DNA of 64,000 nucleotides from Thermoplasmata archaeon (lineage in GTDB: Archaea > Thermoplasmatota > Thermoplasmata > Lutacidiplasmatales > UBA184), in contig JAKAVQ010000002.1 of NCBI GenBank assembly GCA_021817245.1, forward strand, positions 14,721-78,720. The letters are read 5' to 3'. Below, piece after piece: positions 5,936 to 47,779 of the stretch. The notes beneath the pieces are model-generated. The model saw only the letters and a list, made by a program, of their open reading frames with translations, made no database searches and was not told the DNA's origin. Every line of letters starts with the position of its first letter. Position 1 is the stretch's first letter. Both the position numbers and the translations under genes were made by a program.

Positions 5936-7079
5936 GGGAGACCACCTCCACGACCGTCGAAAGCGCGTCGGCCCACGCCGCCTCGGGAACCGTCAACGGA
6001 GGGAGCAGCCGCAGCACGGTCGCCCCGGCGGAGATCGCGAGGAACCCCCTCGCTTCGAGCTCGGCGAGGACGGGGAGGACCCGCTCGCGCAGCTCGATGC
6101 CGAGGAGGAGGCCGAGCCCCCGCACCTCCCGGACGCGGTCGCCCGAGAGCGCCCGCAGGCGCTCGACCGCGACCGCCCCGAGCCGCTCGGCCCGCTCGGC
6201 GAGTCGCTCGCGAACCGTGAAGTCGAGCGCCGCGAGGCCGGCGGCGCAGGCGAGCGGGTTCCCTCCGAACGTCGAATGGTGGCTGCCCCGAAAGCGACGG
6301 GCGACCTCGTCGGTCGTCACCGTCGCCCCGATCGGGACGCCGCCCGCGAGCGACTTCGCGAGCAGCAGGAGGTCGGGCACGACCCCGGCACGCTCGAAGG
6401 CGAACAGCCGACCCGTCCGGGCGATCCCGGTCTGGACCTCGTCGAACGCGAGCAACGCCCCGCGCGCCTCGGTCGCGGCCCGGGCGGCGCGCAAGTACTC
6501 GGGCGTCGCGACGTGCACGCCGCCCTCTCCTTGCACCGGCTCGAGCAGGACGATGGCGGTCGTCTCGTCGACGGCGGCCTCGAGCGCCGCGATGTCGTTG
6601 AACGGCACGTGGACGAACCCCGGGACGAGCGGTTCGAACGGCTCCCGGAGCTCCCGCCGCCAGGTCGCGCTCAACGCGCCGAGCGTGCGCCCGTGGAACC
6701 CCCGCATCGCCGCGACGACCTTCGGTCGACCGGTCGACGAACGGGCGAACTTGATGCCGGCCTCGACGGCCTCGGTCCCGGAGTTCGAGAGGAAGACCCG
6801 CCCGAACGCCGGCGGGAGGAGGCCGAGCAGCCGCTCGACGAACGCCGTACGCACCGGGTTCGAGTAGCCGGTCCCGAGGTAGATGAGGTCGCGCGCCTGG
6901 TCCGCGAGCGCCCGGGCGACCTCGGGGTTGGCCGCGCCGAGGCTCCCCGCGCCGTGGGTCGCGCCGATATCGAGGTAGCGACGACCCCGGTCGTCGACGA
7001 GGTACGCCCCGTCGGCCCGCACGAGCGATATCGGCCGGGGCGGGGCTCCCCCGATCCCTCGCTCGGCCGGGCCGCTCAT
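5925..7079 (-). CDS. argD: acetylornithine / [LysW]-aminoadipate-semialdehyde aminotransferase (class III PLP)
   Basis: MSGPAERG… start found inside fused ORF 5925..8957 (top 'cat' 7077-7079). Class-III aminotransferase motifs (…FLSNSGTEAVEAGIKFAR…AFDEVQTGIARTG…LLAKSLAGG…). ATGA overlap with upstream argB. Confidence 0.9.
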   Translation of the reverse strand: MSGPAERGIGGAPPRPISLVRADGAYLVDDRGRRYLDIGATHGAGSLGAANPEVARALADQARDLIYLGTGYSNPVRTAFVERLLGLLPPAFGRVFLSNSGTEAVEAGIKFARSSTGRPKVVAAMRGFHGRTLGALSATWRRELREPFEPLVPGFVHVPFNDIAALEAAVDETTAIVLLEPVQGEGGVHVATPEYLRAARAATEARGALLAFDEVQTGIARTGRLFAFERAGVVPDLLLLAKSLAGGVPIGATVTTDEVARRFRGSHHSTFGGNPLACAAGLAALDFTVRERLAERAERLGAVAVERLRALSGDRVREVRGLGLLLGIELRERVLPVLAELEARGFLAISAGATVLRLLPPLTVPEAAWADALSTVVEVVSRGG

Positions 7080-7870
7080 GCGATCACCGTTCCGTCGCCC
7101 GCGAGGGCGCGGGCGACCGGCGCGTCGCCGCGGGAGGAGCCGATGACGACCCGTGCGACGCCCCCCGCGAGCGCGTCGCGGGCGGCGAGCACCTTCTTCT
7201 TCATCCGCCCCTGGGCGAGCGGGACGAGCGTCGCGACCTCGGCCTTCGGGACGCTCGCGATCCGGCTCGACGGGTCGTCCACCGACCGCAAGAGGCCGGG
7301 TACGTTGGTCAGCAGGAGGAGGTCGGTCGCCCCGAGCGCGGCCGCGACCTGGGCGGCGACCCGGTCGGCGTCGACGTTCACGACCTCGCCCGCGCCGGTG
7401 ACCGCGGGCGGGCCCACGACGGGCGCGATGCCGGCGTCGAGCAGCATCCGCAACAGCCCGACGCGCACGCTCGTGACCGACCCCGAGAGGTCGTCCGTGA
7501 GGCGGACCGTCCGTCCGTCGACGACCGCGCGGGCCCCCTCGCGCCGGGTCGCCCCGAGCAGCCGGTCGTCGACCCCGGAGAGGCCGACCGCCCGGACGCC
7601 GAGACGCCCCAGTTCGGCGACGATCCGGGTCTGCACCTGCCCCGCGAGGGCGAGGACGACGACCTCCAGGTGGGCGGCGTCGCTCCGGCGCGACACGACC
7701 CCGCTCGGCGACGTGAAGTACTCGGCCGGTCGGCCGAGCGCGGCGCCGAGGCGGTCGACCTCCTCCGAGCCCCCGTGGACGAGGACCCAGTCGCGCCGGT
7801 GCGCGAGGTCGGCCAGTACGCCCGAGACCGAGTTGCCGGCGGCTCCGCCGACCTTGACGACGAGCGTCAT
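7076..7870 (-). CDS. argB: acetylglutamate / [LysW]-glutamate kinase (amino acid kinase family)
   Basis: MTLVVKVGGAA…VLVHGGS… AAK-family signature. Confidence 0.9.
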   Translation of the reverse strand: MTLVVKVGGAAGNSVSGVLADLAHRRDWVLVHGGSEEVDRLGAALGRPAEYFTSPSGVVSRRSDAAHLEVVVLALAGQVQTRIVAELGRLGVRAVGLSGVDDRLLGATRREGARAVVDGRTVRLTDDLSGSVTSVRVGLLRMLLDAGIAPVVGPPAVTGAGEVVNVDADRVAAQVAAALGATDLLLLTNVPGLLRSVDDPSSRIASVPKAEVATLVPLAQGRMKKKVLAARDALAGGVARVVIGSSRGDAPVARALAGDGTVIA

Positions 7871-7879
7871 CGCGGCCCG

Positions 7880-8905
7880 CTAGCTCGGGTGGAGCCCGAG
7901 GAACCCGAGGCCGGTCGTCTCGGGGAATCCGGCCCGGAGGTTGAAGCACTGGACGGCGTTGCCCGCGGCGCCCTTCATCAGGTTGTCGAGCGCGCCGAGC
8001 GCGACGACCCGACCGGCGTGGCCGTCGACAGCGAAGCCGACCTCGCACGTGTTCGTGCCGGCGAGGAGCTTCGGCTCGGGTTCCCGGTGGATCCCGTCGG
8101 CCTCGTGCACGATCCGCACGAACGGCTCCGACCCGTACGCCCCGCGGTAGGCGCGCCAGAGGGTCTTCTCGTCGACCGAACGGCTCCCGAACGCGTGGCA
8201 GGTCGCGAGGACGCCGCGCACCGCCTCGACCGCGTGGCAGCTCAGGGCGACGGTGAGCCCGGTCTCCTGCTCGATCTCGGCGGTGTGCCGGTGACCGGTC
8301 GCGGCGTACACGCGCATCACGCCCGAGCGCTCGGCGTGCGAGCCCGCGGGACCGGCGTCGCGTCCGCTCGCGGACGAGCCGCTCTTCGCGTCGACGATCA
8401 CCGGGCCGGGACCGACGAGGCCGGCGGTGACGAGCGGGCGGAGCGCGAGGATCGACGCGGTCGCGATGCACCCCGGCACGGCGATGATCCGGGCCGTCCT
8501 GAGCCGGTCGCGGTGGAGCTCGGGCAACCCGTAGACCGCCTCCGCGAGGAGCTCGGGATGGGGGTGCTCGGCGCGGTAGTAGACGGGGTACTGGGCGGCG
8601 TCCTTGAGCCGGTAGTCGGCCGAGAGGTCGACCACGATCCCTCCCGCGCGGACGATCTCGGGCACCCGCTCCATCGACCCCCCGTGAGGGGTAGCGAGGA
8701 ACGTCGCGTCGGCCGGCCCGAGCGCGTCGTGCGGAGTGAACGCGAGGGAGGTCGCCTTGCGGAGGTTCGGGTGCGCCCGCCCGACGGGCCGGCCCGCCAT
8801 CGAGTCCGACGTGACCTGGACGAGCTCGACCTCGGGGTGGCCGAGGAGGAGCCGGACGAGCTCTCCGCCGACGTACCCCGAGCCCCCGACGACCGCGACC
8901 TTCAC
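7880..8905 (-). CDS. argC: N-acetyl-gamma-glutamyl-phosphate reductase / LysY
   Basis: GTG start 8905 with GGAGGT RBS. VKVAVVGGSGYVGGEL…PGCIATA (catalytic Cys)…LDNLMKGAAG. Confidence 0.9.
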   Translation of the reverse strand: MKVAVVGGSGYVGGELVRLLLGHPEVELVQVTSDSMAGRPVGRAHPNLRKATSLAFTPHDALGPADATFLATPHGGSMERVPEIVRAGGIVVDLSADYRLKDAAQYPVYYRAEHPHPELLAEAVYGLPELHRDRLRTARIIAVPGCIATASILALRPLVTAGLVGPGPVIVDAKSGSSASGRDAGPAGSHAERSGVMRVYAATGHRHTAEIEQETGLTVALSCHAVEAVRGVLATCHAFGSRSVDEKTLWRAYRGAYGSEPFVRIVHEADGIHREPEPKLLAGTNTCEVGFAVDGHAGRVVALGALDNLMKGAAGNAVQCFNLRAGFPETTGLGFLGLHPS

Positions 8906-9753
8906 CGGCGCCCGACCTCCACGGCGTACTCGACGATCGCACCCGCGACGTCCGCACCGGTCGCCGCGGTGAGCGCCTTGAACTCGGGCGTCGGGTTGAC
9001 CTCGTGGACGACGAGCCCGCTCGGGGACTCCATCAGGTCGACGGCCAGGACCCCGCCGCCGACGGCGTCGGCCGCGCGCAGCGCGAGCTCCGTGATCTCG
9101 GGCGTGAGGGGCGCCGCGGTGACGCGGCCGCCGCGCGCTGCGTTCGTCCTCCACTCCGACGAGTGTCGGTACATTCCGGCGACGACCCGGTCGCCGACCA
9201 CGAACACCCGCAGGTCCCGGTCGGGCTTCGGGACGTACTCCTGGACGTAGATGACCGAGTGGACCGGCGACGTGAGCGCGGCCTTGTGCTCGAGGATCTG
9301 CACCGCGTCCTCCTCGTCGTCGACCCGGGCCATGAGGCGACCCCACGACCCGACCGCGGGCTTGAGGACGGCCGGGTACCCGATCGCGTCGATCGCGGAC
9401 ATCGCCGCTTCCGGCGAGAGCGCGACGACGGTGCGCGGGGTCGGGATGCCCCGTTCGGCGAGCCGCCACGACGCAAGGACCTTGTCGCCGGCGAGCTCGA
9501 TCACGTCGGGCGAGCTCACGGTCGGGACGCCGTAGTGCGCGTACCCGCGGGCCGCGTAGAGCGACCGGGTGTGGCTCACCGAGCGGATCAGGACGACGTC
9601 CGCGAGGTCGTCCGGGGCCTCGAGCCCGAACGTTCGCTCGCTGTCGGGCAACCGCTCGACCGCGACCCCCCGCTCGGCGGCCGCCGCGAGGATCCCCTTC
9701 TCTTCGGGGCGGACGATCGTGTAGAAGACCCCGAGGCGGAACCCGTCACTCAC
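8902..9753 (-). CDS. lysX: RimK-family ATP-grasp ligase LysX/ArgX (attaches Glu/aminoadipate to the LysW C-terminus)
   Basis: ATP-grasp motifs (…AVLKPAVGSWGR…VQEYV…VNPTPEF). GTG start overlaps lysW stop by 8 nt and the argC start by 4 nt. Confidence 0.9.
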   Translation of the reverse strand: MSDGFRLGVFYTIVRPEEKGILAAAAERGVAVERLPDSERTFGLEAPDDLADVVLIRSVSHTRSLYAARGYAHYGVPTVSSPDVIELAGDKVLASWRLAERGIPTPRTVVALSPEAAMSAIDAIGYPAVLKPAVGSWGRLMARVDDEEDAVQILEHKAALTSPVHSVIYVQEYVPKPDRDLRVFVVGDRVVAGMYRHSSEWRTNAARGGRVTAAPLTPEITELALRAADAVGGGVLAVDLMESPSGLVVHEVNPTPEFKALTAATGADVAGAIVEYAVEVGRR

Positions 9754-9907
9754 CCCAGTCCTCGGCCTCTTTCGGGGCGGGTTGCACCGCGAACGGGTCG
9801 GTCCCCTGGACCTCGAGCTCCGTTCCGCAGTCCGGGCAGGGGAAGACCTCCCCCAACACCATGTTGTGGCTCTCCACGCTCGCGTCGCACGCTGGGCACT
9901 CCGTCAT
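9746..9907 (-). CDS. lysW: amino-group carrier protein LysW/ArgW (53 aa; absent from ORF track)
   Basis: Reverse-strand ORF MTECPACDASVESHNMVLGEVFPCPDCGTELEVQGTDPFAVQPAPKEAEDWGE* has the Zn-ribbon CxxC…CxxC and the EDWGE C-terminus diagnostic of LysW. ATGA overlap with argH stop. Confidence 0.85.
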   Translation of the reverse strand: MTECPACDASVESHNMVLGEVFPCPDCGTELEVQGTDPFAVQPAPKEAEDWGE

Positions 9908-11325
9908 CTTCGTTCCTCGTCCAGGATCTCCCCGATCCGCCGCACCTTGCGGTCGAGCGAGGAGAGGGAGGTCGACCGGGCCGCGAGCCGCGACCGGGCG
10001 AGGGAGAGCTGGTGGGCGACCGCGAGCGGGGCCGGCCCGCCCGGCGATCCCCGGAGGTCGAGCGCCGCGCGGACGGAGCCGTCGTCCCCGGCCCGGGGAA
10101 GGTTCGCTGCTGCCGACCGGAGCGCCTCGGTCGCCGGCGCGCCGTCACCGGAGCGGTAGAACGACCCGACCGCCTCGTGCGCCTCACGGAACGGGACGCC
10201 GCCCGCCACGAGGCGTTCCGCGAGGTCGGTCGCGTACAGCTCCGGGTCGGCCGCCGCCGCGGCGACGCGACCGGTGTCGAGCGTGAGAGAACGGACGAGC
10301 CCGTCGACCGTGTCGAGGACGGCGGAGAGCGTCGCCACCGCGCGCAGGACGGGCGCCTTGTCCTCCTGGAGGTCGCGGTCGTAGGCGAGAGGGAGCCCTT
10401 TCAGAACGGCGAGGAGGCCGACAAGGTCCCCGATCGCGCCGCCGGCCTTCGCCCGGACGAGCTCGGCGGCGTCCGGGTTGCGCTTCTGCGGCATGAGACT
10501 GCTGCCGCTGCCGAGCGCCGGGGTCCGCTCGATGAACCCGAACTCCTTCGAGGCGAAGACGACGACCTCCTCGGCGAAGCCGCTCGCGTGCACGGCGAGC
10601 AACGCGAGGTCGAAGAGGAGCTCGACCAGCGGGTCGCGGTCGCTGACCGCGTCGAGGGAGTTCTCGAACGCGCGGTCGAAGCCCAGCCGGGCGGCGACGT
10701 ACGCCGGGTCGATCGGCAGCGTCGAGCCGGCGAGCGCCCCCGCACCGAGCGGCGATACGTTCGCGCGGCCCTCGGTCGCGAACAATCGGTCGAGGTCGCG
10801 GTCGAACCGCCAGAAGTGCGCGAGCAGGTAGTGGGCGACGGTCACCGGCTGGGCGCGCTGGAGATGCGTGTACCCCGGCATCGGGACCGCGGTCGACACG
10901 GACGCCCGGGCGAGGAGCGACTCCTCGAGCTTCGCGAGCCGGGCCGCGACGGCCGCGACGGCCTCGCGCAGGTAGAGGCGCTCGTCGAGCGCGACCTGGT
11001 CGTTGCGGCTGCGCGCCGTGTGGAGCTTCCCGCCGACCGCGCCGACGAGCTCGGTGAGGCGGACCTCGACGTTCGTGTGGACGTCCTCGAGGTCGCTCCG
11101 CCAGGCGAACCGGCCTTCCGCGACCTCGGCGGCGACCGCCCGCAGCCCGCCGATCAGGGTCTTCGCCTCGTCGGGGGTGATCAGGTTCGCCCGCCCGAGC
11201 ATCTCGGTGTGGACGACGCTGCCCGCGAGGTCGACGCGCGCGAGGGACCGGTCGACCGAGAGCGAGCTCAGGAACGCCGCCGTGGGGGTACGGACGTACG
11301 CCGGCGGGGGTCGGGGATCCGGCAT
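9904..11325 (-). CDS. argH: argininosuccinate lyase
   Basis: Start MPDPRPP… (top 'cat' 11323-11325) inside fused ORF 9904..12738. Fumarate-lyase signature GSSLMPQKRNPD, …HTARSRNDQVALD…. Confidence 0.9.
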   Translation of the reverse strand: MPDPRPPPAYVRTPTAAFLSSLSVDRSLARVDLAGSVVHTEMLGRANLITPDEAKTLIGGLRAVAAEVAEGRFAWRSDLEDVHTNVEVRLTELVGAVGGKLHTARSRNDQVALDERLYLREAVAAVAARLAKLEESLLARASVSTAVPMPGYTHLQRAQPVTVAHYLLAHFWRFDRDLDRLFATEGRANVSPLGAGALAGSTLPIDPAYVAARLGFDRAFENSLDAVSDRDPLVELLFDLALLAVHASGFAEEVVVFASKEFGFIERTPALGSGSSLMPQKRNPDAAELVRAKAGGAIGDLVGLLAVLKGLPLAYDRDLQEDKAPVLRAVATLSAVLDTVDGLVRSLTLDTGRVAAAAADPELYATDLAERLVAGGVPFREAHEAVGSFYRSGDGAPATEALRSAAANLPRAGDDGSVRAALDLRGSPGGPAPLAVAHQLSLARSRLAARSTSLSSLDRKVRRIGEILDEERR

Positions 11326-38197: not shown

Positions 38198-39337
38198 CTA
38201 CGGCATCCGCTCGACGATCGCGCGGAGGGCCGACGCGGGCTCGCGTCCCCGGCCGGCCTTCGCGAGGACCCGCTCGAGCGCCGCGAACGTCACGAGGAGG
38301 TCCGGCCAGTCGGCGATCCCCATGTGGCCGATGCGGAAGATCCGCCCGGTGAGCGACCCCTGGCCCCCCTGGACGAGGACGTTGTACTGCCGCTCGAGCA
38401 CCTTGCGGAGCTCGGCGTCGCCCATCCCGGCCGGGTTCTGGACCGCGGTGACCGTGTCGGAGGCGAACCGACGGTCGGGGAACAGATCGAGGCCGAGCGC
38501 GTCGACGGCCGACCGGGTCGCCTCGGCGAGCCGGTGCGTCCGCTCGAGTCGCCGCTCGAGCCCCTCCTCGCGCAGCAGAAGGAGCGCCTCGCGCAGCGCG
38601 AGGAAGAGCGGCACGGCGGGGGTCCACGGGGTGTCGTTCTTCTCGAGCGACTTCAAGTGGGCCGCGAGGTCGAGGTAGAAGGTGCCCGGACGGAGCGCCG
38701 CGACCGCCCGGTCGGAGAGGTGGACGAGCGCGAGGCCCGCGGGCGCGGCGAGCCCCTTCTGGCTGCCCGCGACGACCGCGTCGACGCCCCACGCCTCGAT
38801 CGGGAGCGGGATCCCCGCGACCGCGCTGATCCCGTCGACGAGGAAGAGGGCGCCCGACGCCCGGACGGCGGGCGCGATCGCGGCGAGGTCGTTCGCGAGG
38901 CCGACGCTCGTCTCGTTGTGGACGACGCAGACGGCCTTCACGTCGCCCTTCTCGAGCTCCGCGCGGGCCCCGGCGACCGGGAACGGCTCGCCCCAGGCGG
39001 CGCTCACGGTCGTCACGCGGGCGGAGTATCGCCGCACGATCTGGTCGGTGCGCTCGCCGAAGTTCCCGTTCGTGACCACGAGCGTTCGCCCGTCGCGCGG
39101 AACGAGCGAGGAGTAGACCGACTCGAGGCCGGCGGTCCCGCTCCCCGTGAGGATGACCTGGTGGCCTTTCGCCCCGAACAGGACCGGGAGCAGCTCCCGG
39201 ATCTCCGCGACGATGCCGTGGAAGAAGTCGCCGCGGTGGTTGAGCGACGACATCGACATCGCGCGCAGCACCCGCGGGTGGATCCGCACGGGCCCGGCGA
39301 TCAGGAACGTCGTCGTCTCGGGGTCGAACGGCGTCAT
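38198..39337 (-). CDS. class V aminotransferase (serine-glyoxylate/alanine-glyoxylate or phosphoserine aminotransferase-like)
   Basis: MTPFDPETTTFLIAGPVRIHPRVL…SQKGLAAPAGLALV (PLP-Lys region). Class-V fold. Internal ATG of ORF 38198..40408. Confidence 0.85.
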   Translation of the reverse strand: MTPFDPETTTFLIAGPVRIHPRVLRAMSMSSLNHRGDFFHGIVAEIRELLPVLFGAKGHQVILTGSGTAGLESVYSSLVPRDGRTLVVTNGNFGERTDQIVRRYSARVTTVSAAWGEPFPVAGARAELEKGDVKAVCVVHNETSVGLANDLAAIAPAVRASGALFLVDGISAVAGIPLPIEAWGVDAVVAGSQKGLAAPAGLALVHLSDRAVAALRPGTFYLDLAAHLKSLEKNDTPWTPAVPLFLALREALLLLREEGLERRLERTHRLAEATRSAVDALGLDLFPDRRFASDTVTAVQNPAGMGDAELRKVLERQYNVLVQGGQGSLTGRIFRIGHMGIADWPDLLVTFAALERVLAKAGRGREPASALRAIVERMP

Positions 39338-40284
39338 CGCGGTCCGCCCTCCCCCCCGACGAGGCTCGTGAGCGGTTCGCCGCGCACGGCCCGCAGCACC
39401 TCGTCGACGGTGTCGACGCCCGCGCGGCGCTGGGCTTCGGCGGTCGAGGCGCCGGTGTGGGGGGTCACGATCACATTCGGTCGCGCGACGAGCGTCGGGC
39501 TCACGGGCGGTTCCACCTCCAGTACGTCGAGCGCGGCGCCCCCGAGATGGCCCGAGTCGAGGGCGGAGGCGAGGGCGGCCTCGTCGACGAGGGCGCCGCG
39601 GGCGACATTGACGAGGTAGGCGCCCCGCTTCATCCGCGCGAAGGCGTCGGCGTTGAGGAGGTGACGGTTCGACTCGGTGAGCGCCGCGTGGACGCTGACG
39701 ATGTCCGAGCGGGCGAGCACCTCCTCGAACGGAAGGAGCTCGGTCGCGTCCCCGGCCTCCGTCACGAACGGGTCGTAGGCGACCGTCCGCGCGCCGAACG
39801 GCGCGAGGCGACGGGCGATCTCGCGCGCGATCCGGCCGTATCCGACGAACCCGACGGTCCGGCCCGAGAGCTCGCCGCCGTGGGTCCCGCGGTCCCAGCG
39901 ACCGGCCTTGGTCGCCGCGATCTGGGGATAGAGGCCCCGCACGAGGAGCAGGTAGAGGGCGACCGCGAGCTCCGCGACGCTCGCGGTCGCGGCGGCGGGA
40001 GCGTTGACGACTCGGACCCCCCGGGCGCGGGCGGCGGGGAGGTCGATGTTGTCGACGCCGACCCCGGCGCGGGCGACGAGCGAGAGCTTCGGGGCCTTCG
40101 CGAGGAGCGCCGACGTCACCCGGGTCCGGCTTCGGACGACCAGCGCCCAGGCGTCGGCGAGGGCCGCGTCGAGCGACCGGGGGTCGGCGCTCGCGTCCAC
40201 GACCCGGCACGGCCCCGCGCGCAGGCGGTCGAGCGCGGCGGCGTCGATCGGGTCGGCGACGACCACGCACGGTAGCTCGGCCAT
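39334..40284 (-). CDS. D-isomer-specific 2-hydroxyacid dehydrogenase (phosphoglycerate dehydrogenase/hydroxypyruvate reductase-like)
   Basis: GFVGYGRIAREIARRL NAD site, …VNVARGALVDE…, …IVTPHTGASTAEAQ… ATGA overlap with downstream aminotransferase. Confidence 0.85.
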   Translation of the reverse strand: MAELPCVVVADPIDAAALDRLRAGPCRVVDASADPRSLDAALADAWALVVRSRTRVTSALLAKAPKLSLVARAGVGVDNIDLPAARARGVRVVNAPAAATASVAELAVALYLLLVRGLYPQIAATKAGRWDRGTHGGELSGRTVGFVGYGRIAREIARRLAPFGARTVAYDPFVTEAGDATELLPFEEVLARSDIVSVHAALTESNRHLLNADAFARMKRGAYLVNVARGALVDEAALASALDSGHLGGAALDVLEVEPPVSPTLVARPNVIVTPHTGASTAEAQRRAGVDTVDEVLRAVRGEPLTSLVGGEGGPR

Positions 40285-40332: not shown

Positions 40333-41283
40333 CTACCTCGCCTTCGGGACCGGCACGCGGTCGAGCGCCCCGCGCACGATCGCCTCGGACCGGATCCCGC
40401 GGATCCACGGCTCGGGCTTGACGATCACGCGGTGCGCGAGCGCCGGGACCGCGAGCGCCTTCACGTCGTCGGGGAGGACGAAGTCCCGGCCCTGGACGAG
40501 GGCGCGGGCCCGGGAGAGCTTCTGGAGCGCGAGCGAGCCGCGGGGGGAGGCGCCGACCTCGCTGCGCGGGTCGTCGCGGGTCGCGCGGACGAGGTCGATG
40601 AGGTATCCGGCGACCGACGGTTCGAGCTCGACGTCCTCGACCGCGCGCTGGAGCGCGAGGAACGACGGGGCGTCCGTGACGGCCTCGACCTCGACGGCCT
40701 CGACCTTGCGCGCGCGGCGGCGCTCGAGGATGCCCCGCTCCTCCTCGGGGGTCGGGTACCCGATCTTGAGCCGCATCAGGAACCGGTCGACCTGGGCCTC
40801 GGGGAGCGGGTAGGTCCCTTCGAGCTCGAGCGGGTTCTCCGTCGCGAGGACGAGGAACGGCCGCGGCAACGGGTACGTCGACCGCTCGCTCGTCACCTGG
40901 TACTCCTGCATCGCCTCGAGGAGCGCCGATTGGACCTTGGGCGGCGCCCGGTTGATCTCGTCGGCGAGGAGGACGTTCGTGAAGAGCGGGCCCGGCCGGA
41001 AGACGAACCCGGTCTTCCCGGCGTCCAGCATCTCGGCGCCGGTGATGTCGTGGGGGAGCAGGTCGGCGGTGAACTGGATCCGCTGGAACTCGAGCTTCAG
41101 CGACCGGGCGAACGACTTCGCCATCAGCGTCTTCCCGAGCCCGGGGAGGTCCTCGATCAGGAGATGGCCGTCGGCGATCAGGCCGACGAGCACCTGGTCG
41201 ACCGCCTCGTCCCGCCCGACGATCGCGGTCTGGACCGCGCGGCGGATCCTCTCGGCGAGGGCCCGGGCCTCCTCGGGATTCAT
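40333..41283 (-). CDS. MoxR-family AAA+ ATPase
   Basis: …LIEDLPGLGKTLMAKSFARSL (Walker A)…VLLADEINRAPPKVQSALLEAMQE… Own TATA-like ctatattat about 35 nt upstream. Confidence 0.9.
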   Translation of the reverse strand: MNPEEARALAERIRRAVQTAIVGRDEAVDQVLVGLIADGHLLIEDLPGLGKTLMAKSFARSLKLEFQRIQFTADLLPHDITGAEMLDAGKTGFVFRPGPLFTNVLLADEINRAPPKVQSALLEAMQEYQVTSERSTYPLPRPFLVLATENPLELEGTYPLPEAQVDRFLMRLKIGYPTPEEERGILERRRARKVEAVEVEAVTDAPSFLALQRAVEDVELEPSVAGYLIDLVRATRDDPRSEVGASPRGSLALQKLSRARALVQGRDFVLPDDVKALAVPALAHRVIVKPEPWIRGIRSEAIVRGALDRVPVPKAR

Positions 41284-41559
41284 CTTCGGTCTCCGGCGGC
41301 GGGAGTCTCGCTCGCTATATTATCGTGGACGGCGGCCGCCGACCGGTCGCCCCGCCCCCGTGTTCCCCCACCGTAACGACCCGCGTCATCGCAGGCGCTC
41401 GCCCTCTCGGAGGTCTGACCCCGGCCGGGGGTGTCGGACACCGGGGTTGTCCTCACGTCATCCTCGGCGGACGACCCGTCCGCATTGAGTCGAGAGGGAC
41501 CCTTCGTCGGTACCCGGGCACGACCTGGGGTCGTACCGAAGCCGACAGAGTGCGCGTCA

Positions 41560-42087
41560 CTATGAGGTTAGCGCCTCCTCGCGGTCGAACAGGCGGGGCC
41601 GGGCGACCAGGAACGCGACCGCGCCGATCGCGAACGCGAGGAGCCCCGCGGCGACGCCGACCGTTGCCGAGCCGGGCGGTAGCAGGAGCGCGCTCACCCA
41701 CGACATCGCGACCGCCAGCGCGGGCAGAAGGAGGCCGGCGCCGGCCCGGCGGACCCCGCGGGCCGGTCGGTGCGGGTCGTCCGCCAGCCACAGCAGGAAG
41801 ACGAGCCCGGCCGCCCCGGCCGCGAGCGCCGGAACGAGGCCGAGGGGCGAGACGACGGCCGCGAGGCCGAGCCCGCCGAGGACCGGCACCGGGGCGAACG
41901 GGCGGGTCCGCGCCCCTCCGAACCTCCGGAGGAGGATCCCGAGGCCGGCGGCGACGAGCGTTCCCGCGAGGAGAAGCGCACGGTCCCCGCCGGCGACCCC
42001 CGCGAAGAGCCCCGCCGCGACCAGGAGCAGCGCGTCCGACATCGCCCCCGCGAGTCGCCCCCCGCGGCCGGGAGCGGGCGGGATCAT
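41560..42087 (-). CDS. hypothetical integral membrane protein
   Basis: 4-5 hydrophobic helices (…LLLVAAGLFAGVAGG…LGLAAVVSPLGLVPALAAG…). Start overlaps DUF58 stop (ATGA-type). Confidence 0.45.
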   Translation of the reverse strand: MIPPAPGRGGRLAGAMSDALLLVAAGLFAGVAGGDRALLLAGTLVAAGLGILLRRFGGARTRPFAPVPVLGGLGLAAVVSPLGLVPALAAGAAGLVFLLWLADDPHRPARGVRRAGAGLLLPALAVAMSWVSALLLPPGSATVGVAAGLLAFAIGAVAFLVARPRLFDREEALTS

Positions 42088-43379
42088 CCGGCCCTCCGGG
42101 TGAGCGGGCGGTGCAAGAAGCTCACGAACCCGGCGAGCGACCAGTAATCCTCCCAGTCGATGGTCGGGGCGTACCGCCAGGACTCGGCGAGCCGTTGCCG
42201 CCGCAACAGGCGCGCGAGCCGGGCGACGATCGCCTCCTCCTCGTCGGAGAGCGTTCGCTCGGCCGCGACGATCGGGATCGGCGACGGGCTCAGGACGACC
42301 ACGGGGTACCCGCGCCGGCGCAGGAACGGAACGAGGTCGGCCGTCGAGGCCTCGGCGAGCGGAGAGAGGAGGAGCGTCGTCACGCCCGGTCGGAAGTACC
42401 GGGCCGCGGCGATCGCCCCGCGCTCCGACGGCGCCCGGACGTCCGCGAGGCGGGCCCCGAGCAGGCCCTCGCGCACCCGCTGGGCGTGCGCCCTCCCCAT
42501 TCCCAGCGGAACGACGTCGAGGAACTCGCCGAACACGGCGAGCCCGACCCGCGCCTTCTCGCGCAGGAACGACGAGGCGATCCCGGCCGCCGCCGCCCGC
42601 GAGATCCCGAGGAGCCGCTCGTCGAGGGCGGGCCCGAGGGAGGAGGGGCGCGCATCGAGGTAGAGGAGGACGTCACCGGTTCGGTCCGGCTCGTACTCGT
42701 TCGCGAGGTAGTCGCCCGCGCGGGCGCTCGCCCGCCAGTTGATCCGTCGCGGCGGGTCGCTCGGGACGGCGGAACGTATCCCGTGGAACTCGCCGGCGGA
42801 GCCGAGCCGCGGGGAACGGCTCTCGCCCGGGAGCAGCATCGTCCGCCGCAACGGGACCGACCCGATGCGGGCGACCTCGGGCGGGTACCGCTCGACGATC
42901 GTCGGGGACGCCTCGACCTCCACGGCCCGTTCGACGAGGCCCATCGGGTCCCGCCATCGGGCGCGGACAGGGGGGACGACGACGATCGCCGGCTCGCGGA
43001 TCTTCCAGGTCCGCTCGAACGTGACGGTGGCCCCGGAGCGACCCTCGCGCGGAGGCCGGGACTCGGCGAGCCCGGGCGGTCGGTCGCACTCGATGACCAG
43101 GTCGCCCGCACGGCCGTCGGACCGAAGGGTCACCGATCCCCGGAACAGCACGTCCGCACCGTGGCCCTCGGCTCGGGTGTCGACCCGGGCCGACGGGGGG
43201 CTCCTCGGCCCGGCGAAGGCGGCCGCCGGCGCCGCGAGCAGGAGCGGGAGCGCGAGGAAGAGCGGTGCCGGGTTGCGCGCGGCCACCCCGAGGAGGAGGA
43301 GCGCCGCTCCGGACGCCGCGAGCAGGAAGGCGCGAGGCTGCCACTCGAGCGGACTCGCGCCGCTCGCGGCCTCGCTCAC
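42084..43379 (-). CDS. DUF58 domain (vWA-like) protein
   Basis: …GEFHGIRSAVPSDPPRRINWRASARAGDYLANEYEPDRTGDVLLYLDA… DUF58 core. N-terminal TM. GTG start overlapping upstream stop (GTGA). Confidence 0.8.
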   Translation of the reverse strand: MSEAASGASPLEWQPRAFLLAASGAALLLLGVAARNPAPLFLALPLLLAAPAAAFAGPRSPPSARVDTRAEGHGADVLFRGSVTLRSDGRAGDLVIECDRPPGLAESRPPREGRSGATVTFERTWKIREPAIVVVPPVRARWRDPMGLVERAVEVEASPTIVERYPPEVARIGSVPLRRTMLLPGESRSPRLGSAGEFHGIRSAVPSDPPRRINWRASARAGDYLANEYEPDRTGDVLLYLDARPSSLGPALDERLLGISRAAAAGIASSFLREKARVGLAVFGEFLDVVPLGMGRAHAQRVREGLLGARLADVRAPSERGAIAAARYFRPGVTTLLLSPLAEASTADLVPFLRRRGYPVVVLSPSPIPIVAAERTLSDEEEAIVARLARLLRRQRLAESWRYAPTIDWEDYWSLAGFVSFLHRPLTRRAG

Positions 43380-43783
43380 GAGCGGGCCTCGAGTTCGTCG
43401 ATCCGCCCGCGCACGTACTCGCGGAACTCGGCTCCGGAGAGCCGGACGAGCCGGGCCTGCTCCTCCGGGCGTCGTCCCGCAAAGGCGGGGTTCGGTCCGG
43501 TCCGTTCGTAATTGTCGAGCAGCGAGACGATCAGCTCCCGACCGACGCGCCCCGTGCGGAACGCGGTCCGGAGACGGTCCACCTCGCCGGAGGAGCGCGG
43601 GGCGCCGGGCGGCCGCGCCCGTCGCGCTACGGACGGCGCGCTCTCGACGAAGAGGAACGCCGCGGCCGCGACCGCGGCGGTCGCCGCCGGGACCGCGAGC
43701 GCGAAGTTCGTGCCGGCCCACACCGCGACCCCGGTGGCGACGACCGCTACGGCCCCCGCGATCGTCGCGAGCGGACGGTTCAC
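43376..43783 (-). CDS. small hypothetical membrane-anchored protein
   Basis: GTG start overlapping DUF4129 stop (GTGA). N-terminal TM (…IAGAVAVVATGVAVWAGTNFALAVPAATAAVAAAAFLF…) plus helical cytoplasmic tail. Upstream of ORF 43376..45139 is RS-rich junk. Confidence 0.4.
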   Translation of the reverse strand: MNRPLATIAGAVAVVATGVAVWAGTNFALAVPAATAAVAAAAFLFVESAPSVARRARPPGAPRSSGEVDRLRTAFRTGRVGRELIVSLLDNYERTGPNPAFAGRRPEEQARLVRLSGAEFREYVRGRIDELEARS

Positions 43784-44730
43784 GCGACCTCCGGCGCCCG
43801 CTCGAGGTCGGCCGTCGCCCGCCGCATCGCCCCCGCCGCGCGGTCCGCCGACTCCGGTCCGATAGGATGCGTGGAGTAGCGGGCCTCCTCGAACAGCCGG
43901 GTCAGCTCCGTGGCGACCTCGGGGCGGATCCCGAGCCGAACGAGGTGCTGGACGCGGATCTCCTCCGGAGTGGACGGGTCGATCTGCACGACGTAGCGGC
44001 CGAGCCGCTCGAGGAGGTCGGCGTACAGCCGCTCGATCACGTCGCGCGGGTCGAGGCCCCGGTCGAGGTCGCGGGACGCGCGGGCGAACACGCCCCGCAC
44101 CTCTGCGGCGGTCGGGCCCGAGCCGGGTCGCTGGGAACCGGCGCCCCGCAGGCGACGCGCGGTGGACCATTGGGCCAGGAAGGGCATCACGACCGCCGCG
44201 ACGAGCAGGGTCACGACCGCGAGAGCGACGAACTCGAGCCAGGCGGGGACGTGCCAAGAGAGGAGCACCAGCTCGCCGCCACCGAACGTCGTGTTGTTGG
44301 AGCCGCCGGTCGCGGTGCTGTTGTTGCCCGAGGGCGGTGGGACGGAGCCCGGCGTGCCCCCTCCGCACCAAGGACATCCGCCCGGGTGGAAGAACTGGGC
44401 CGCGGCGACGAACGCGACCCCGAGCAGGATCACCACGAGGAAGGTGATGACCGCCCGGCTCGAGAGCGTCGCGGCGCCCCCCGTTAGCCGGCGGTAGACC
44501 AGGACGACCGCGACGAGCGCGAACAGGCCGAGCAGGGCGTCGGCGATCCAGGTCGCCGGGACGACCAGCTCGCTCGCGGGCTGGGCGGGCGCCCCCGGAG
44601 CCGTCGCCGCGCCGAGCAGCAGGCTCGCCGCCGCCCCGGTCGCGAGGGCGACCGCGAGCACGACGAGGAGGACGAGCGACGGTCGGCCGGTGCGAACGGG
44701 AGCGCGCCCGCCGGCGACGGATTCGCTCAT
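43780..44730 (-). CDS. DUF4129 domain membrane protein
   Basis: …TPEEIRVQHLVRLGIRPEVATELTRLFEEARYSTHP… DUF4129 C-terminal signature. 4 TM helices. CPWCGGG and Asn/Thr/Gly-rich extracytoplasmic segment. Confidence 0.7.
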   Translation of the reverse strand: MSESVAGGRAPVRTGRPSLVLLVVLAVALATGAAASLLLGAATAPGAPAQPASELVVPATWIADALLGLFALVAVVLVYRRLTGGAATLSSRAVITFLVVILLGVAFVAAAQFFHPGGCPWCGGGTPGSVPPPSGNNSTATGGSNNTTFGGGELVLLSWHVPAWLEFVALAVVTLLVAAVVMPFLAQWSTARRLRGAGSQRPGSGPTAAEVRGVFARASRDLDRGLDPRDVIERLYADLLERLGRYVVQIDPSTPEEIRVQHLVRLGIRPEVATELTRLFEEARYSTHPIGPESADRAAGAMRRATADLERAPEVA

Positions 44731-45623
44731 GGACCGGCCGACGCGGGCGGGGAGGGCTTCGGAGCGGGGGAAAGGAAGTAGAAGCTCCGTCGCTCGTGCG
44801 CCGCGGAGAGGACCGCGAAGTCGTCGACGGCGTACCCGAGGTCGAAGGCGGCCCGGAAGGCGTCGCGCACGGCGTGGCGCCAGCGACGCACGCCCGCCTC
44901 CTCGTGCTCGCGGACCGACGCGAGGTCGAACGGGATCTCGAGGTGGGCGCTCGGGCCGGTCGGCTCCTGGACCACGGTCGGGACCCGCAGTCCGCTCTCC
45001 CCGGCGTCGGTCTCGACGATCGGCGTCGATCCCGCCCACCGGCGCTGGACGTCCTCGGACGACGGCAATCGTCCGGCCATCCGCTCCTCGACCCGGACGT
45101 CGGCGAGCGGCCAGACCCAGCGGAGGCGGTCCGTCTCAAGGCCCCGGTCGACCGGATCGTCGAGCTGGCCGAAGTAGTGGGAGAAGTAACGGTCCGGCCG
45201 GGCGCCCAGGCGCCGGACGATCAGACCGGCGCTCCGACCCTCCAGGGGGTCGAACGTCCCGCGGATCTCGGATAGCCCCAGCTTCAGGACCTCGTCCCGC
45301 TGGAACGCTTTCAGCCGGAAGCCGAGGCCGTGGTTCTGGTACTCCGGGCGTACCACCGTGAGGTGGGAGTAGTGGTAGAGGGTCGACCCGTCCCACCCGA
45401 GGAGCGAGATCGTCGCTCCCGCGAGATAGATGTCGGCGAAGGCTCCGAGGACGATCCCGCCGTTGTCCTGGAGGGCGCGCTGGAGCGCGGTCGGGACCCC
45501 GACCTCCGACTCGGGCCCCCAGACCGCCGTCCGGAGTTCCTCGACCTGCCGGAACTCCTCGGGCTTCTGGAGACGGCGGAACCGGAACCCTTCGGTCCGC
45601 GGGGACCCCGCGCCGACCGCCAC
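44727..45623 (-). CDS. GNAT-like acyl-CoA N-acyltransferase fold protein (putative), first gene of the MoxR operon
   Basis: …LTVVRPEYQNHGLGFRLKAFQRDEV… resembles the GNAT motif A (Q/R-x-x-G-x-G/A). ~130-aa C-terminal extension of unknown fold. ATGA overlap with DUF4129 gene. Confidence 0.45.
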   Translation of the reverse strand: MAVGAGSPRTEGFRFRRLQKPEEFRQVEELRTAVWGPESEVGVPTALQRALQDNGGIVLGAFADIYLAGATISLLGWDGSTLYHYSHLTVVRPEYQNHGLGFRLKAFQRDEVLKLGLSEIRGTFDPLEGRSAGLIVRRLGARPDRYFSHYFGQLDDPVDRGLETDRLRWVWPLADVRVEERMAGRLPSSEDVQRRWAGSTPIVETDAGESGLRVPTVVQEPTGPSAHLEIPFDLASVREHEEAGVRRWRHAVRDAFRAAFDLGYAVDDFAVLSAAHERRSFYFLSPAPKPSPPASAGP

Positions 45624-45674
45624 GCACCGTGGACGGGTCCGCCTTACTTAACCCGCTCGCGCCGAACGCTCGGG

Positions 45675-46100
45675 CTAGCGGCGGAGGCGCAGCTCGACCC
45701 GCTTCGACTCGTAGCGGACCTCGTCGGCCGGCGTGAGGTCCCACAGGAGGTTCTCGAGCTCGGGGATGTTCCGAAGGAACTCCGCCTTGCTCTTCGTGAG
45801 CATGAGGTGCTCGAACTTCCGCCGGGCGTTGTAGTAGGCGCCGACAAGGTACCCGCCGACGATGACCACGATCGGGCCGAGGATCACGAACAGGAGGTTG
45901 TAGTTCGCCCCGGGCTGGTCGGTCGCCGAGTTGATCGCCGGGAACGGGCCGGCTCCCGATAGGGGCGTGAAGAAACCGACCGCGAGGACCGTCAGCAGGA
46001 CCCCGACCGCGAGCACGAAGATGGAGACCGCGGCGCGGTACGCCCGCAGGCCGTACCGGAGTCGGCGACCGACCGGGACCGACGCCTCCTCCGACGGCAT
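45675..46100 (-). CDS. small hypothetical membrane protein
   Basis: Two TM helices (…AVSIFVLAVGVLLTVLAVGFF…, …LLFVILGPIVVIVGGYLVGAYY…) then charged helix. Balanced codon usage. Confidence 0.5.
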   Translation of the reverse strand: MPSEEASVPVGRRLRYGLRAYRAAVSIFVLAVGVLLTVLAVGFFTPLSGAGPFPAINSATDQPGANYNLLFVILGPIVVIVGGYLVGAYYNARRKFEHLMLTKSKAEFLRNIPELENLLWDLTPADEVRYESKRVELRLRR

Positions 46101-46214
46101 GCGGCCGGCGGGAGGCTGCCCGACTTAAGAACCTTCGGGGACGTCGGCACGCCACGGTCCGGGCGCAGCACGCTCGCGGGCGCCGCTCCCGGGGCCACAC
46201 GGACGGCCGTCGGC

Positions 46215-47012
46215 TCACCCCGACCGACGTCGGCCGCCGGTGGGGCCGGTCGAGGACCGGTCGGTTCGTCCGAACGGCGAAGGGGCCTCGCCGGCGGGCG
46301 GCTTCGGTCCGGCCGAGGGCGGAGGGACCTCCTCGAGGAGCGGCCGAAGGCGCCGATAGACGAGGACGGCCCCCAGGAAGGCGACCGCGGTCCCGGCGAA
46401 CGCCGCGACCTCGCCGGCGACCGACCCGAGACCGAGCAAGAAGAACCCGACCGCTCCGACGAGCGCGCCCGACAGCGGCCCCCCGGAGCGACGGGTCGTC
46501 CCCGGCCCCGGGCGCAACGACAGCATCGCCCCGGCGACCTCGAGGGCCACGATCGTCACCGACTCGAACAGGGCGAGCGCGAGCGTGTCGGCCGAGATCG
46601 GGCCGACGCCCAGGTACTGGGCGAGGACCGCGAGAGTGACGATCCCTCCGATCGCAGCGCGGAACCCGACGGCGTAGAAGGGGACGCTCCGGTCGCTCCC
46701 CCAGTACCGGGTCCGCGAGAGGATCGCCTGGGCCGCCTCGGTCCCCCCGATCAGCAGGGCGAGGAAGGCGAGCGCGCCGAGCAGGGCGCCGTTGGCCATC
46801 GAGATCACGAAGAGCAGGTAGGCGATCGCGAGCGGCACGCCGACAAAGAGGCCGGCGGTGTAGGCGAACAGCTCCTTGCGCTCGTCGAACCTTGTGACGG
46901 GCACCTGGGGGGTCGCGAACCGACCGACCTCCCACCAGACGAACCCTCCCGAAAGGAGGATACCGACCGCCGCGGCGAGCGTCAGGGTCAGCGTCGGGGC
47001 GGCCACGGTCAC
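46215..47012 (-). CDS. hypothetical polytopic membrane protein
   Basis: GTG start (VTVAAPTLTL…) overlapping trmI stop (GTGA). ~8 TM helices. ORF-track 5' extension is Arg-rich junk. Confidence 0.5.
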   Translation of the reverse strand: MTVAAPTLTLTLAAAVGILLSGGFVWWEVGRFATPQVPVTRFDERKELFAYTAGLFVGVPLAIAYLLFVISMANGALLGALAFLALLIGGTEAAQAILSRTRYWGSDRSVPFYAVGFRAAIGGIVTLAVLAQYLGVGPISADTLALALFESVTIVALEVAGAMLSLRPGPGTTRRSGGPLSGALVGAVGFFLLGLGSVAGEVAAFAGTAVAFLGAVLVYRRLRPLLEEVPPPSAGPKPPAGEAPSPFGRTDRSSTGPTGGRRRSG

Positions 47013-47779
47013 TCGACCTTGCGCCCGGCCGCGAGGAACCCGGTATGGCCGAGCATCTCGAACTCGGGCCGCGTCCCCCCCTCGCCGACGTGGAGCCCGC
47101 GCTCGAGGACCTCGACCGCGCGTACGTCGTCGAACCCGAGGCTGCGGAAGGCCCGGACCGTCCGTTCGAGCTGGTTGTACGTGGGCGTGTAGGTCCCCGC
47201 GTAGCCTCCCGGTCGCAACGCCGCCCGGGCCGAGGCGAGCACCTCCCACGGCTCGGCCAGGTCGAGCACGACGCTCGAGAGCTCCTCCACGTCCAGCCCC
47301 TCGCGGACCACGTCACGCTCCCGGAAGGTCACCCGTTCGGAGAGCCCGGCGCGTTCGACGTTCGCCCGGGCCCCCTCGAGGAACTCCGGCCGTCGGTCGT
47401 AGGAGGTCACGTGTCCGGAGGGGCCCACGGCGTAGGCGAGGGTGATCGTAAGCGCGCCGCTGCCGGCGCCCGCTTCGGCCACGGTCGCGCCGGGCCCCAC
47501 GCCCGCGATCGCGAGGAGGTGGACGGCGTCCTTCGCCGTGACGATCTGGGCTCCGCGGCGGACCGACCCGAGGAGGTCGGCGAGAGAGGGCCGGATCAGC
47601 CGGTACGTCTGCCCGGACCAGGCGATCGGCCGGCCGGGCCGCTGGCCGATCTCGCTCGACAGATCGACCACGCCGTCCTCTCCGACACGCCGGGGCCCCC
47701 GCAGGAGCCGGACCAGGAGCGGTCGCGACCCCCGGCGGGTGAGGACCGCGACCTCCCCTTCCTCCCAGGCGTCCGTGGT
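47009..47779 (-). CDS. trmI: tRNA (adenine57/58-N1)-methyltransferase TrmI (Gcd14 family); start codon unresolved
   Basis: …AQIVTAKDAVHLLAIAGVGPGATVAEAGAGSGALT (SAM site)…DLAEPW… TrmI N-terminal beta-domain (…DAWEEGEVAVLTRRGSRPLLVRLLRGPRRVGEDGVVDL…) is encoded in-frame upstream of the first GTG (47671), with no ATG/GTG/TTG available. 5' coordinate is approximate. Confidence 0.7.
   Translation of the reverse strand, partial: TTDAWEEGEVAVLTRRGSRPLLVRLLRGPRRVGEDGVVDLSSEIGQRPGRPIAWSGQTYRLIRPSLADLLGSVRRGAQIVTAKDAVHLLAIAGVGPGATVAEAGAGSGALTITLAYAVGPSGHVTSYDRRPEFLEGARANVERAGLSERVTFRERDVVREGLDVEELSSVVLDLAEPWEVLASARAALRPGGYAGTYTPTYNQLERTVRAFRSLGFDDVRAVEVLERGLHVGEGGTRPEFEMLGHTGFLAAGRKVE

Follow-up and report, generated by a model that had tools for sequence, protein, structure and literature searches.

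The 64,000-nucleotide (nt) window analysed here, a stretch of 74% G+C on a contig from a Thermoplasmata metagenome-assembled genome (MAG), contains a minus-strand locus of six genes (g1 to g6 in order of transcription) that a preliminary description had taken for a single six-gene operon. We find that the locus is better read as three units, a reading to which we assign a probability of about 0.6: a rearranged membrane cassette with its MoxR-family ATPase, a gene for an H/ACA guide small RNA (sRNA), and a neighbouring gene for a GNAT-fold protein. Judged by comparative gene order, the core is a widespread five-component cassette of unsolved function that has been rearranged in this archaeal lineage, presumably a membrane-anchored AAA+/von Willebrand factor A (vWA) remodelling machine; the locus is a rearranged variant of a known unsolved system. 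The features on which the argument turns are as follows.

44727-45623, minus strand: g1, 298 amino acids (aa), two-domain GNAT-fold protein of the COG3375 type ('predicted GNAT acetyltransferase')
43780-44730, minus strand: g2, 316 aa, DUF4129 protein with four transmembrane (TM) segments
43376-43783, minus strand: g3, 135 aa, two N-terminal TM helices and a helical cytoplasmic tail
42084-43379, minus strand: g4, 431 aa, DUF58 protein
41560-42087, minus strand: g5, 175 aa, polytopic membrane protein
40333-41283, minus strand: g6, 316 aa, soluble MoxR-family AAA+ ATPase
41361-41537, minus strand: predicted double-hairpin archaeal H/ACA guide sRNA, about 177 nt
45644-45651, minus strand: AT-rich box TTAAGTAA, about 24 nt upstream of the GTG of g1
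41560-41569, minus strand: box AACCTCATAG, overlapping the g5 stop, a candidate sRNA promoter resembling a B recognition element/TATA box
41316-41323, minus strand: TATA box ATAATATA, about 36 nt upstream of the MoxR ATG

Because DNA of 74% G+C carries long spurious open reading frames (ORFs) in every frame, we checked conservation separately for each gene. Orthologues of each of the six ORFs are present in about 40 related genomes, and none of the six is an artefact of high GC; genes called independently on the source contig are the same six. The four 4-nt overlaps are also real (ATGA at 44727-44730 and 42084-42087; GTGA at 43780-43783 and 43376-43379), and the gap between g5 and MoxR exists, although it measures 276 nt (41284-41559) rather than 277. 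Hydropathy gives four TM segments for g2, two each for g3 and g4, about four to six for g5 and none for g6, matching the membrane topologies first proposed (a 4-TM g2, a small TM protein g3 and a polytopic g5). The domain assignments held against Pfam cut-offs for all but one family. DUF4129 (PF13559) matches g2 at 29.6 bits (cut-off 24.8), in a C-terminal, helical domain; DUF58 (PF01882) matches g4 at 42.2 bits (cut-off 23.4), and the predicted fold agrees with a vWA-like protein (below); and the MoxR identity of g6 (COG0714, MoxR-proper type) is borne out by AAA_3 (204.3 bits; cut-off 27) and AAA_lid_2 (80 bits, likewise above its cut-off), with AAA_5 at 42.7 bits and both Walker motifs (Walker A, GLGKT; Walker B, LLADE) seen in the sequence. 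The exception is g1, which reaches 15.1 bits against GNAT (PF00583; cut-off 20.7). A search of NCBIfam gave no match for g1 to g5.

We compared 80 loci obtained by scanning GTDB species genomes with a DUF58 alignment, in which at least 455 candidate stretches encode relatives, and searched all 80 with the window proteins (L-numbers are locus labels). About 41 Thermoplasmata loci, UBA184 included, share the order PCMT/GCD14, TM265 (a 265-aa TM protein), DUF3198, g1, g2, g3, g4, g5, gap, MoxR, 2-hydroxyacid dehydrogenase, aminotransferase, and the arrangement of the MoxR/DUF58/DUF4129 module is kept across them, as first proposed. The outgroup order, seen in about 30 loci from at least six archaeal and at least six bacterial lineages, is DUF4129-TM protein (about 280-320 aa), small TM protein (140-230 aa), MoxR, DUF58, polytopic TM protein (140-200 aa), tightly packed. 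The archaea concerned are Methanomassiliicoccaceae, DHVE2, other Thermoplasmatota, Thermococcus, Bathyarchaeia, Thermoproteota, Nitrososphaerales and one Asgard archaeon; the bacteria are Bipolaricaulota, Gaiellaceae, Acidimicrobiales, Spirochaetota, Methylomirabilota and Dormiibacterota. MoxR lies between the small TM gene and DUF58 in every outgroup, directly adjoining the latter, and downstream of the cassette in this lineage, with DUF58 0.8 kb upstream of it in the window. On this comparison, what sets the UBA184-like lineage apart is that MoxR has been transposed to a place downstream of the cassette. The locus had been called a distinctive variant on three grounds, of which the displaced MoxR with its own promoter stands, whereas the GNAT leader and the 'extra' TM proteins do not.

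At the position of g2, a DUF4129 match was obtained for 29 of 31 outgroup proteins, hhalign joined g2 to its outgroup equivalents with a probability of 99.8 over the DUF4129 part, and Pfam found no transglutaminase core (Transglut_core) in g2 or in the 31 equivalents. The lineage holds 43 orthologues of g3 and 38 of g5; the g3 of the window matches no Pfam family and its g5 neither a Pfam nor an NCBIfam family, and among 59 proteins at the small-TM position four match DUF7269 (best E = 4e-8). We regard g3 as the positional equivalent of the 140-230-aa small TM protein that precedes MoxR in outgroup cassettes, and g5 as that of the 140-200-aa TM protein that follows DUF58, a position occupied in 32 outgroup loci. 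Proteins of the same size and topology thus stand at the same positions in nearly every outgroup cassette, and g3 and g5 are not the two additions for which they had been taken. Paralogous g2-g3-g4-g5 cassettes, again with 4-nt overlaps, occur in four loci (L028, L034, L035 and L049), two of which (L034 and L028) share their MAGs with full loci (L032 and L033); all four have neither g1 nor the sRNA, and no MoxR within 8 kb. The DUF4129 proteins of these paralogous cassettes have a loop with a far longer Gly/Ser/Asn-rich repeat.

The outer loop of g2 (residues ~112-166) is of low complexity, rich in N, S, T, G and P, and contains the sequons NNST and NNTT. Sequons of the form N-x-S/T in a G/S/T/N/P-rich loop occur in nearly all g2 orthologues and also in the Thermococcus and Methanomassiliicoccaceae equivalents, in agreement with the earlier suggestion of glycosylation; the loop is probably extracellular and N-glycosylated, with the DUF4129 domain cytoplasmic. 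A CPWCGGG motif had also been singled out in g2. Its cysteines are kept in three of 43 orthologues (the window genome and two relatives), and we rejected CPWC as a redox motif on the grounds that it is not conserved.

The AlphaFold2 model of g4 (predicted local distance difference test [pLDDT] 77.4) places helices at 15-34 and 38-56, strands over 63-163, then a disordered linker and an alpha/beta domain at 200-410, that is, a 2-TM hairpin, a beta-sandwich, a linker and a vWA-like domain. Its top Foldseek matches (E ~5e-5) are the aerotolerance-related vWA protein of B. fragilis (4jdu), the metal-ion-dependent adhesion site (MIDAS) domain of MDN1, the vWA domain of the anthrax-toxin receptor ANTXR, and NorD in NorQD; a profile search of g4 against PDB sequences returned nothing. 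The preliminary description spoke of a DUF58 MIDAS domain in complex with MoxR. At the MIDAS position (DxSxS), however, g4 reads D242-A-R244-P-S, a degenerate form in which D242 and R244 are invariant among 27 orthologues, and outgroup DUF58 proteins read DCRSV, DAREG or DAAKK there. A complex of MoxR with a MIDAS is therefore not the expected interface, and metal-dependent ligand binding by the vWA domain of g4 appears unlikely.

On the reading that we prefer, the core cassette consists of a 4-TM DUF4129 protein (TgpA/YebA-like, lacking the transglutaminase), a small 2-TM protein, MoxR, DUF58 and a polytopic TM protein; the MoxR gene, once in the middle, has come to lie downstream under its own TATA box, with the four membrane genes still translationally coupled. 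The cytoplasmic vWA domain of DUF58 would tether a MoxR hexamer to the membrane, and ATP-driven remodelling would act on the DUF4129 and small-TM partners (as co-adaptors or as clients) or on their clients, which would make the cassette a device for the assembly or quality control of the envelope or of membrane proteins. One free-standing MoxR could be shared between this cassette and the MoxR-less paralogous cassette that some of these genomes carry; that MoxR stands free and that the paralogues have none suggests that it acts in trans.

Several known systems resemble the cassette in part. MoxR and vWA proteins form chaperone/adaptor pairs, and MoxR-vWA-YebA(TGL) operons have been proposed as membrane-proximal degradation systems (Zhang & Aravind 2012, PMC3495828). 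The MoxR-vWA(DUF58)-TgpA/YebA operon (PMC3495828; TgpA of P. aeruginosa, PMC3507681) has in common with our locus MoxR, DUF58/vWA, a polytopic protein ending in DUF4129 and a predicted action at the membrane, whereas g2 has no transglutaminase or peptidase core, two small membrane proteins are always present in addition, DxSxS is missing from the vWA domain and MoxR is displaced. The Bat (aerotolerance) operons of Bacteroides share the MoxR-DUF58 pair, and 4jdu is the best structural match to the vWA domain of g4, but our locus has no BatA/BatB-type TM-vWA protein, no TPR protein (BatC/E) and no BatD, and has a DUF4129 partner instead. Archaeal MoxR-vWA-DUF4350 neighbourhoods are predicted secretion or membrane-remodelling systems (Makarova et al. 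2015, PMC5898192); this arCOG01314 (DUF4350) system likewise combines an archaeal MoxR (COG0714), an Ig-like+vWA (DUF58-type) protein and small proteins with two to five TM segments, but here a DUF4129 protein takes the place of DUF4350 and of S-layer/Ig-like proteins, and DUF4350 matched none of the six window proteins and none of the outgroup proteins at the g2, g3 and g5 positions. The Bifidobacterium PFNA cluster (pkb2, fn3, aaa-atp, duf58, tgm; PMC8430577) also places a MoxR-type AAA gene, DUF58 and a TgpA-like gene side by side, and differs from our archaeal locus in its kinase, FN3 protein and transglutaminase and in its membrane partners. Finally, NorQ-NorD, CbbQ-CbbO and RavA-ViaA pair a MoxR-class hexameric ATPase with a vWA adaptor (NorD is among the fold matches to g4); their adaptors use a MIDAS and their clients, soluble or enzymes, are known, whereas g4 is membrane-anchored and without a MIDAS. 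A known anti-phage defence or MoxR-vWA-beta-propeller conflict system was also considered: PADLOC made no defence-system assignment (its sole match was a 13-bit P-loop), and the bpMoxR profile scores 35 bits on g6, beneath the far stronger AAA_3 match, with no propeller gene present. By the PADLOC result the locus is not a known defence system.

The proposed MoxR-vWA-YebA(TGL) system suggests the alternative that fares best, although we think it unlikely: like that system, the cassette would carry out proteolysis or quality control close to the membrane, with the protease supplied in trans or lost. DUF4129 is otherwise typical of TgpA/YebA transglutaminase-like proteins tied to MoxR and DUF58 (PMC3495828, PMC3507681), and the MoxR and vWA partners are identical. 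The transglutaminase core is nevertheless missing from g2 and from all its 31 outgroup equivalents, the corresponding loop of g2 is the low-complexity, sequon-rich segment described above, and no conserved peptidase gene adjoins the cassette in the neighbourhoods compared.

The GNAT fold of g1, which had been proposed from the sequence, stands in spite of the failed Pfam test, as judged from the predicted structure: in the AlphaFold2 model (pLDDT 74.5) every top Foldseek match in the PDB is a GNAT protein (Naa30, Naa50, RimI, SpeG; E ~1e-5; template-modelling score to target ~0.6), and a profile of 31 g1 orthologues matches insect arylalkylamine N-acetyltransferase (AANAT-like; PDB profile search) over motif A at E = 2e-4. 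For the acyl-CoA motif Q/R-x-x-G-x-G/A, g1 reads Q96-N-H-G-L-G101 and most orthologues Q-N-H-H-L-G. There are 663 homologues, the best 120 at 66-99% identity, and all matches with a named organism are Thermoplasmata MAGs; source records name homologues 'predicted GNAT superfamily acetyltransferase'. Many Joint Genome Institute records (P0007, P0013, P0016 and others) call the family 'chorismate synthase', a label for which the fold and profile results give no support and which is probably a propagated mis-annotation.

That all six genes form one functional system, in which the GNAT protein acetylates a component or client of the cassette and MoxR is a separately tuned member, strikes us as quite improbable. 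Such a system would account for the four bases (ATGA) that g1 and g2 share in the window, for the lack of any AT-rich box from g1 to g5 (between 38000 and 48000 there are only three AT-rich 8-mers, ATAATATA and TTAAGTAA among them) and for the fact that every one of the ~41 full loci in the lineage has g1 upstream of g2. The entire block of about 10 kb, from PCMT to the serA-like and aminotransferase genes, is syntenic in the lineage, however, so the adjacency of g1 to the cassette there says little about function. Beyond the lineage, g1 is missing from 36 of 36 outgroup loci, and it is also missing from all four paralogous cassettes. Within it, g1 is split from g2 in about 11 loci, by a gene of the mandelate racemase/muconate lactonizing (MR_MLE) group of the enolase superfamily in six (L002, at 8895-10016, L024, L038, L039, L042 and L047) and by a second DUF4129 gene in five (L023, L027, L037, L043 and L046; ~5400-7550). 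In most relatives, moreover, 12-136 nt separate g1 and g2, several of these spacers carrying an AAGGG-TTATC/TATAT box that resembles a TATA box. These observations speak against the claim that the GNAT gene belongs to the cassette; from the gene neighbourhoods we conclude that g1 is a lineage-specific upstream neighbour and not a core component.

GNAT proteins and N-acyl-amino-acid racemases are known metabolic partner pairs. The MR_MLE gene beside g1 in six relatives hints that g1 is a metabolic N-acyltransferase, which is probably its role. The box TTAAGTAA upstream of g1 is a candidate archaeal TATA box for a leaderless transcript of g1, possibly extending through g5. Promoter-like boxes of this kind occur here (45644-45651 and 46130-46140) and in the g1-g2 spacers of L019, L020, L025, L027, L032, L033 and L048; they resemble (A)AGGG-[GA]TTATC, TTAAGT or TATATA and lie about 25-40 nt ahead of start codons, which, in a lineage of 74% GC, suggests that transcripts are mostly leaderless or have short leaders.

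The third unit lies in the gap between g5 and MoxR, which in 30 of 32 loci is 252-292 nt long. A core of about 170 nt is almost invariant in 38-41 loci, where the flanking proteins are only 45-60% identical. The comparative and structural evidence indicates that the gap holds an independent, previously unannotated gene for an H/ACA sRNA predicted to guide ribosomal RNA (rRNA) pseudouridylation; with Cbf5, Nop10, Gar1 and L7Ae, the sRNA would direct that modification. Its parts, as predicted, are:

41517-41537, minus strand: variable 5' hairpin
41432-41516, minus strand: unit 1, with an ANA box at 41432-41434
41361-41430, minus strand: unit 2, with ACA at 41361-41363

At gathering thresholds Rfam reported only a tRNA across the window and nothing in the gap. 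At an E-value threshold the best match was HgcG (RF00064, Pab40), on the minus strand over model positions 58-271 and ending in ACA, at 21.8 bits against a gathering threshold of 77 (E = 4e-4 in a 451-nt search). The structure was drawn by hand as an H/ACA type from a 38-sequence alignment and RNAalifold, the latter giving a short variable hairpin and then two long hairpins, each followed by A-N-A. It comprises 52 pairs, and 95.8% of cells pair, compared with 39-47% in controls with slid partners. In 18 pairs both sides have changed, and none of 500 shuffles reaches any of the five measures. G-U pairs are frequent (columns 48-123, 49-122 and 158-172 are examples) and fit the operon strand only, which fixes the strand of the sRNA. 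Each unit has a covarying lower stem of 9 base pairs, an internal loop of invariant sequence and an upper stem; both carry a kink-turn (K-turn) signature, identified as a sequence motif only (an invariant GA opposite a 3-nt bulge and GA; columns G70A71/G102A103 and G154A155/G178A179). Each lower stem is followed on its 3' side by an invariant A-N-A (ACA/AUA/AAA and ACA/AUA/AGA, respectively), which the proposed structure sets 14 nt from the pocket. A covariance model of the element (R1) scores 198.6 bits at the gap and found no second copy in the window, in the paralogous loci or in the outgroups.

Pyrococcus H/ACA guides have the defining features found here, and Pab40/Pf7/Afu4, with three motifs, targets 23S rRNA (PMC2377435). 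The predicted sRNA resembles Pab40 (= Pf7 = Afu4, HgcG) in its hairpin-ANA units with K-turns, and motifs 2 and 3 align with it (model positions 58-271); the GUUAC 3' guide and the GGU(U/C)AG 5' guide of the last Pab40 motif are nearly identical. It differs from Pab40 in having two H/ACA units only, with the short variable hairpin in place of motif 1, and in its fixed site directly after a protein gene. The two-hairpin layout is shared with sR-h45 of H. volcanii, where a two-hairpin H/ACA RNA targets helix 69 and domain V (PMC7075261).

The guides of unit 2 (5' GGGUCA, 3' GUUA(C)) are one base off Pab40 motif 3. With GGCCGUAACUAUAACGGUCC taken as the helix-69 loop, the predicted partner of the unit-2 guides is GUAAC-UA-U(G/A)AC. 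When metagenomes were scanned for the helix-69 variant GGCCGTAACTNTGACGGTCC, at least 120 matches came back, with flanks recognizable as helix 69 of 23S rRNA; the six loci checked with Rfam are all bacterial large-subunit rRNA, and none of 120 carried an archaeal 16S signature. Unit 1 aligns with the atypical motif 2 of Pab40; its guides gave no convincing site when set against domain-V sequences. Bacterial 23S rRNA genes commonly have the helix-69 variant GGCCGUAACU(A/C)UGACGGUCC, in which E. coli position 1918 is G (L086-L205, at least 120 matches).

The sRNA starts 4-25 nt past the g5 stop in 41 of 41 loci, including L016 and L043, where MoxR is 0.6-1.2 kb further off. In about 31 of 40 loci a C/T-[ACT]-TAG box ([CTG][ACT]TA[GA]), with CAAC before it, stands 46-51 nt ahead of the first lower stem, and it persists where the g5 stop is further upstream (L008 and L011-L013). 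In the window it is AACCTCATAG, a candidate sRNA promoter overlapping the end of g5, from which the sRNA is probably transcribed; co-transcription with g5 followed by processing is a possible alternative.

The gap element might instead be cis-regulatory, either a 5' leader (riboswitch or thermosensor) or a 3' untranslated region or terminator, rather than a trans-acting guide, and its place between two genes of one system, with no classical TATA box upstream of it, fits such a role. We consider this very improbable. The TATA box of MoxR lies downstream of the sRNA, so the element cannot be the MoxR leader; it stays beside g5 where MoxR is displaced; its best Rfam match is an H/ACA family; and the anatomy set out above (two hairpins, 9-bp lower stems, internal loops, K-turns and ANA 14 nt from the pocket) is that of H/ACA RNAs, with invariant single-stranded pocket sequences typical of guides. 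The gap had been described as structured, and it is; the element in it stays with g5 and precedes the MoxR TATA box.

The independent TATA box that had been placed before MoxR was recovered as the AT-rich box ATAATATA, and orthologous gaps have a TTATATA/CATATAC-type box at the same place. That MoxR in this lineage has lost its functional tie to the cassette and is a mere neighbour with other clients is the least probable of the alternatives, since in all outgroups MoxR lies inside the cassette and in this lineage it has been kept within 0.3-1.5 kb of it across about 41 diverged genomes, against which stand its own promoter, the intervening sRNA gene, the paralogous cassettes with no adjoining MoxR and the extra DNA between sRNA and MoxR in L016 and L043. 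The insertion in L016 (10026-10651) is 626 nt long and holds a hydrophobic ORF of 98 aa on the opposite strand (10130-10426); that in L043, at the same place, measures 1.2 kb.

Several points weigh against reading the locus as three units built in this way. The adjacency of g1, kept throughout the lineage, and its overlap with g2 here make co-transcription likely in this genome and a functional link possible. Comparisons of g3 and g5 with outgroup proteins at the same positions, by hhalign and hidden Markov model searches, gave no significant signal, so we claim equivalence from position, size and topology only. The degenerate MIDAS of g4 means that the usual metal-dependent binding mode of vWA domains may not apply, and the biochemical function of the cassette is one that we infer throughout. 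For the sRNA, the HgcG score falls far short of its gathering threshold, the upper stem of unit 1 is unusually long between pocket and K-turn, and the target pairing is a prediction.

MoxR-DUF58 modules are among the commonest unexplained ATPase systems of prokaryotes, and the version defined here, compact, of five genes and lacking both transglutaminase and MIDAS, also occurs in cultivable archaea such as Thermococcus, where it is genetically testable. The free-standing MoxR and the MoxR-less paralogue offer a natural test of whether one ATPase serves several membrane adaptors. With the predicted H/ACA sRNA, an uncultured archaeal lineage gains a guide RNA, and the case indicates that structured gaps in apparent operons can be independent RNA genes that Rfam thresholds miss. 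We put forward, tentatively and as a speculation, a wider reading in which the five-gene cassette is an undescribed ancient membrane machine of many archaeal and bacterial phyla, a transglutaminase-less counterpart of TgpA acting on a glycosylated envelope; in UBA184-like Thermoplasmata one MoxR hexamer would serve two paralogous cassettes, and the H/ACA sRNA would be hard-wired to the cassette through the promoter overlapping the g5 stop. If this were true, envelope remodelling and ribosome modification could be coupled through one transcriptional neighbourhood.

Elsewhere in the window, ARAGORN called a 98-nt 'tRNA-???' with a 2-base anticodon at 6096-6193 (minus strand), which Rfam does not call at gathering threshold; either an archaeal tRNA with an intron or a false positive could explain it. 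Upstream of g1, the block at 45675-47671 (minus strand) encodes a PCMT/GCD14-type methyltransferase, the 265-aa TM protein, overlapping the methyltransferase by 4 nt, and a DUF3198 protein (34 bits), and travels with the locus across the whole lineage. On the 3' side of MoxR, 38198-40284 (minus strand) encodes a phosphoglycerate-dehydrogenase-like 2-hydroxyacid dehydrogenase and a class-V aminotransferase, overlapping by 4 nt and resembling a pair of the serine pathway; other genes (for example, RnfD/NqrB-like) stand between MoxR and this pair in L002, L015, L017, L044 and L046.

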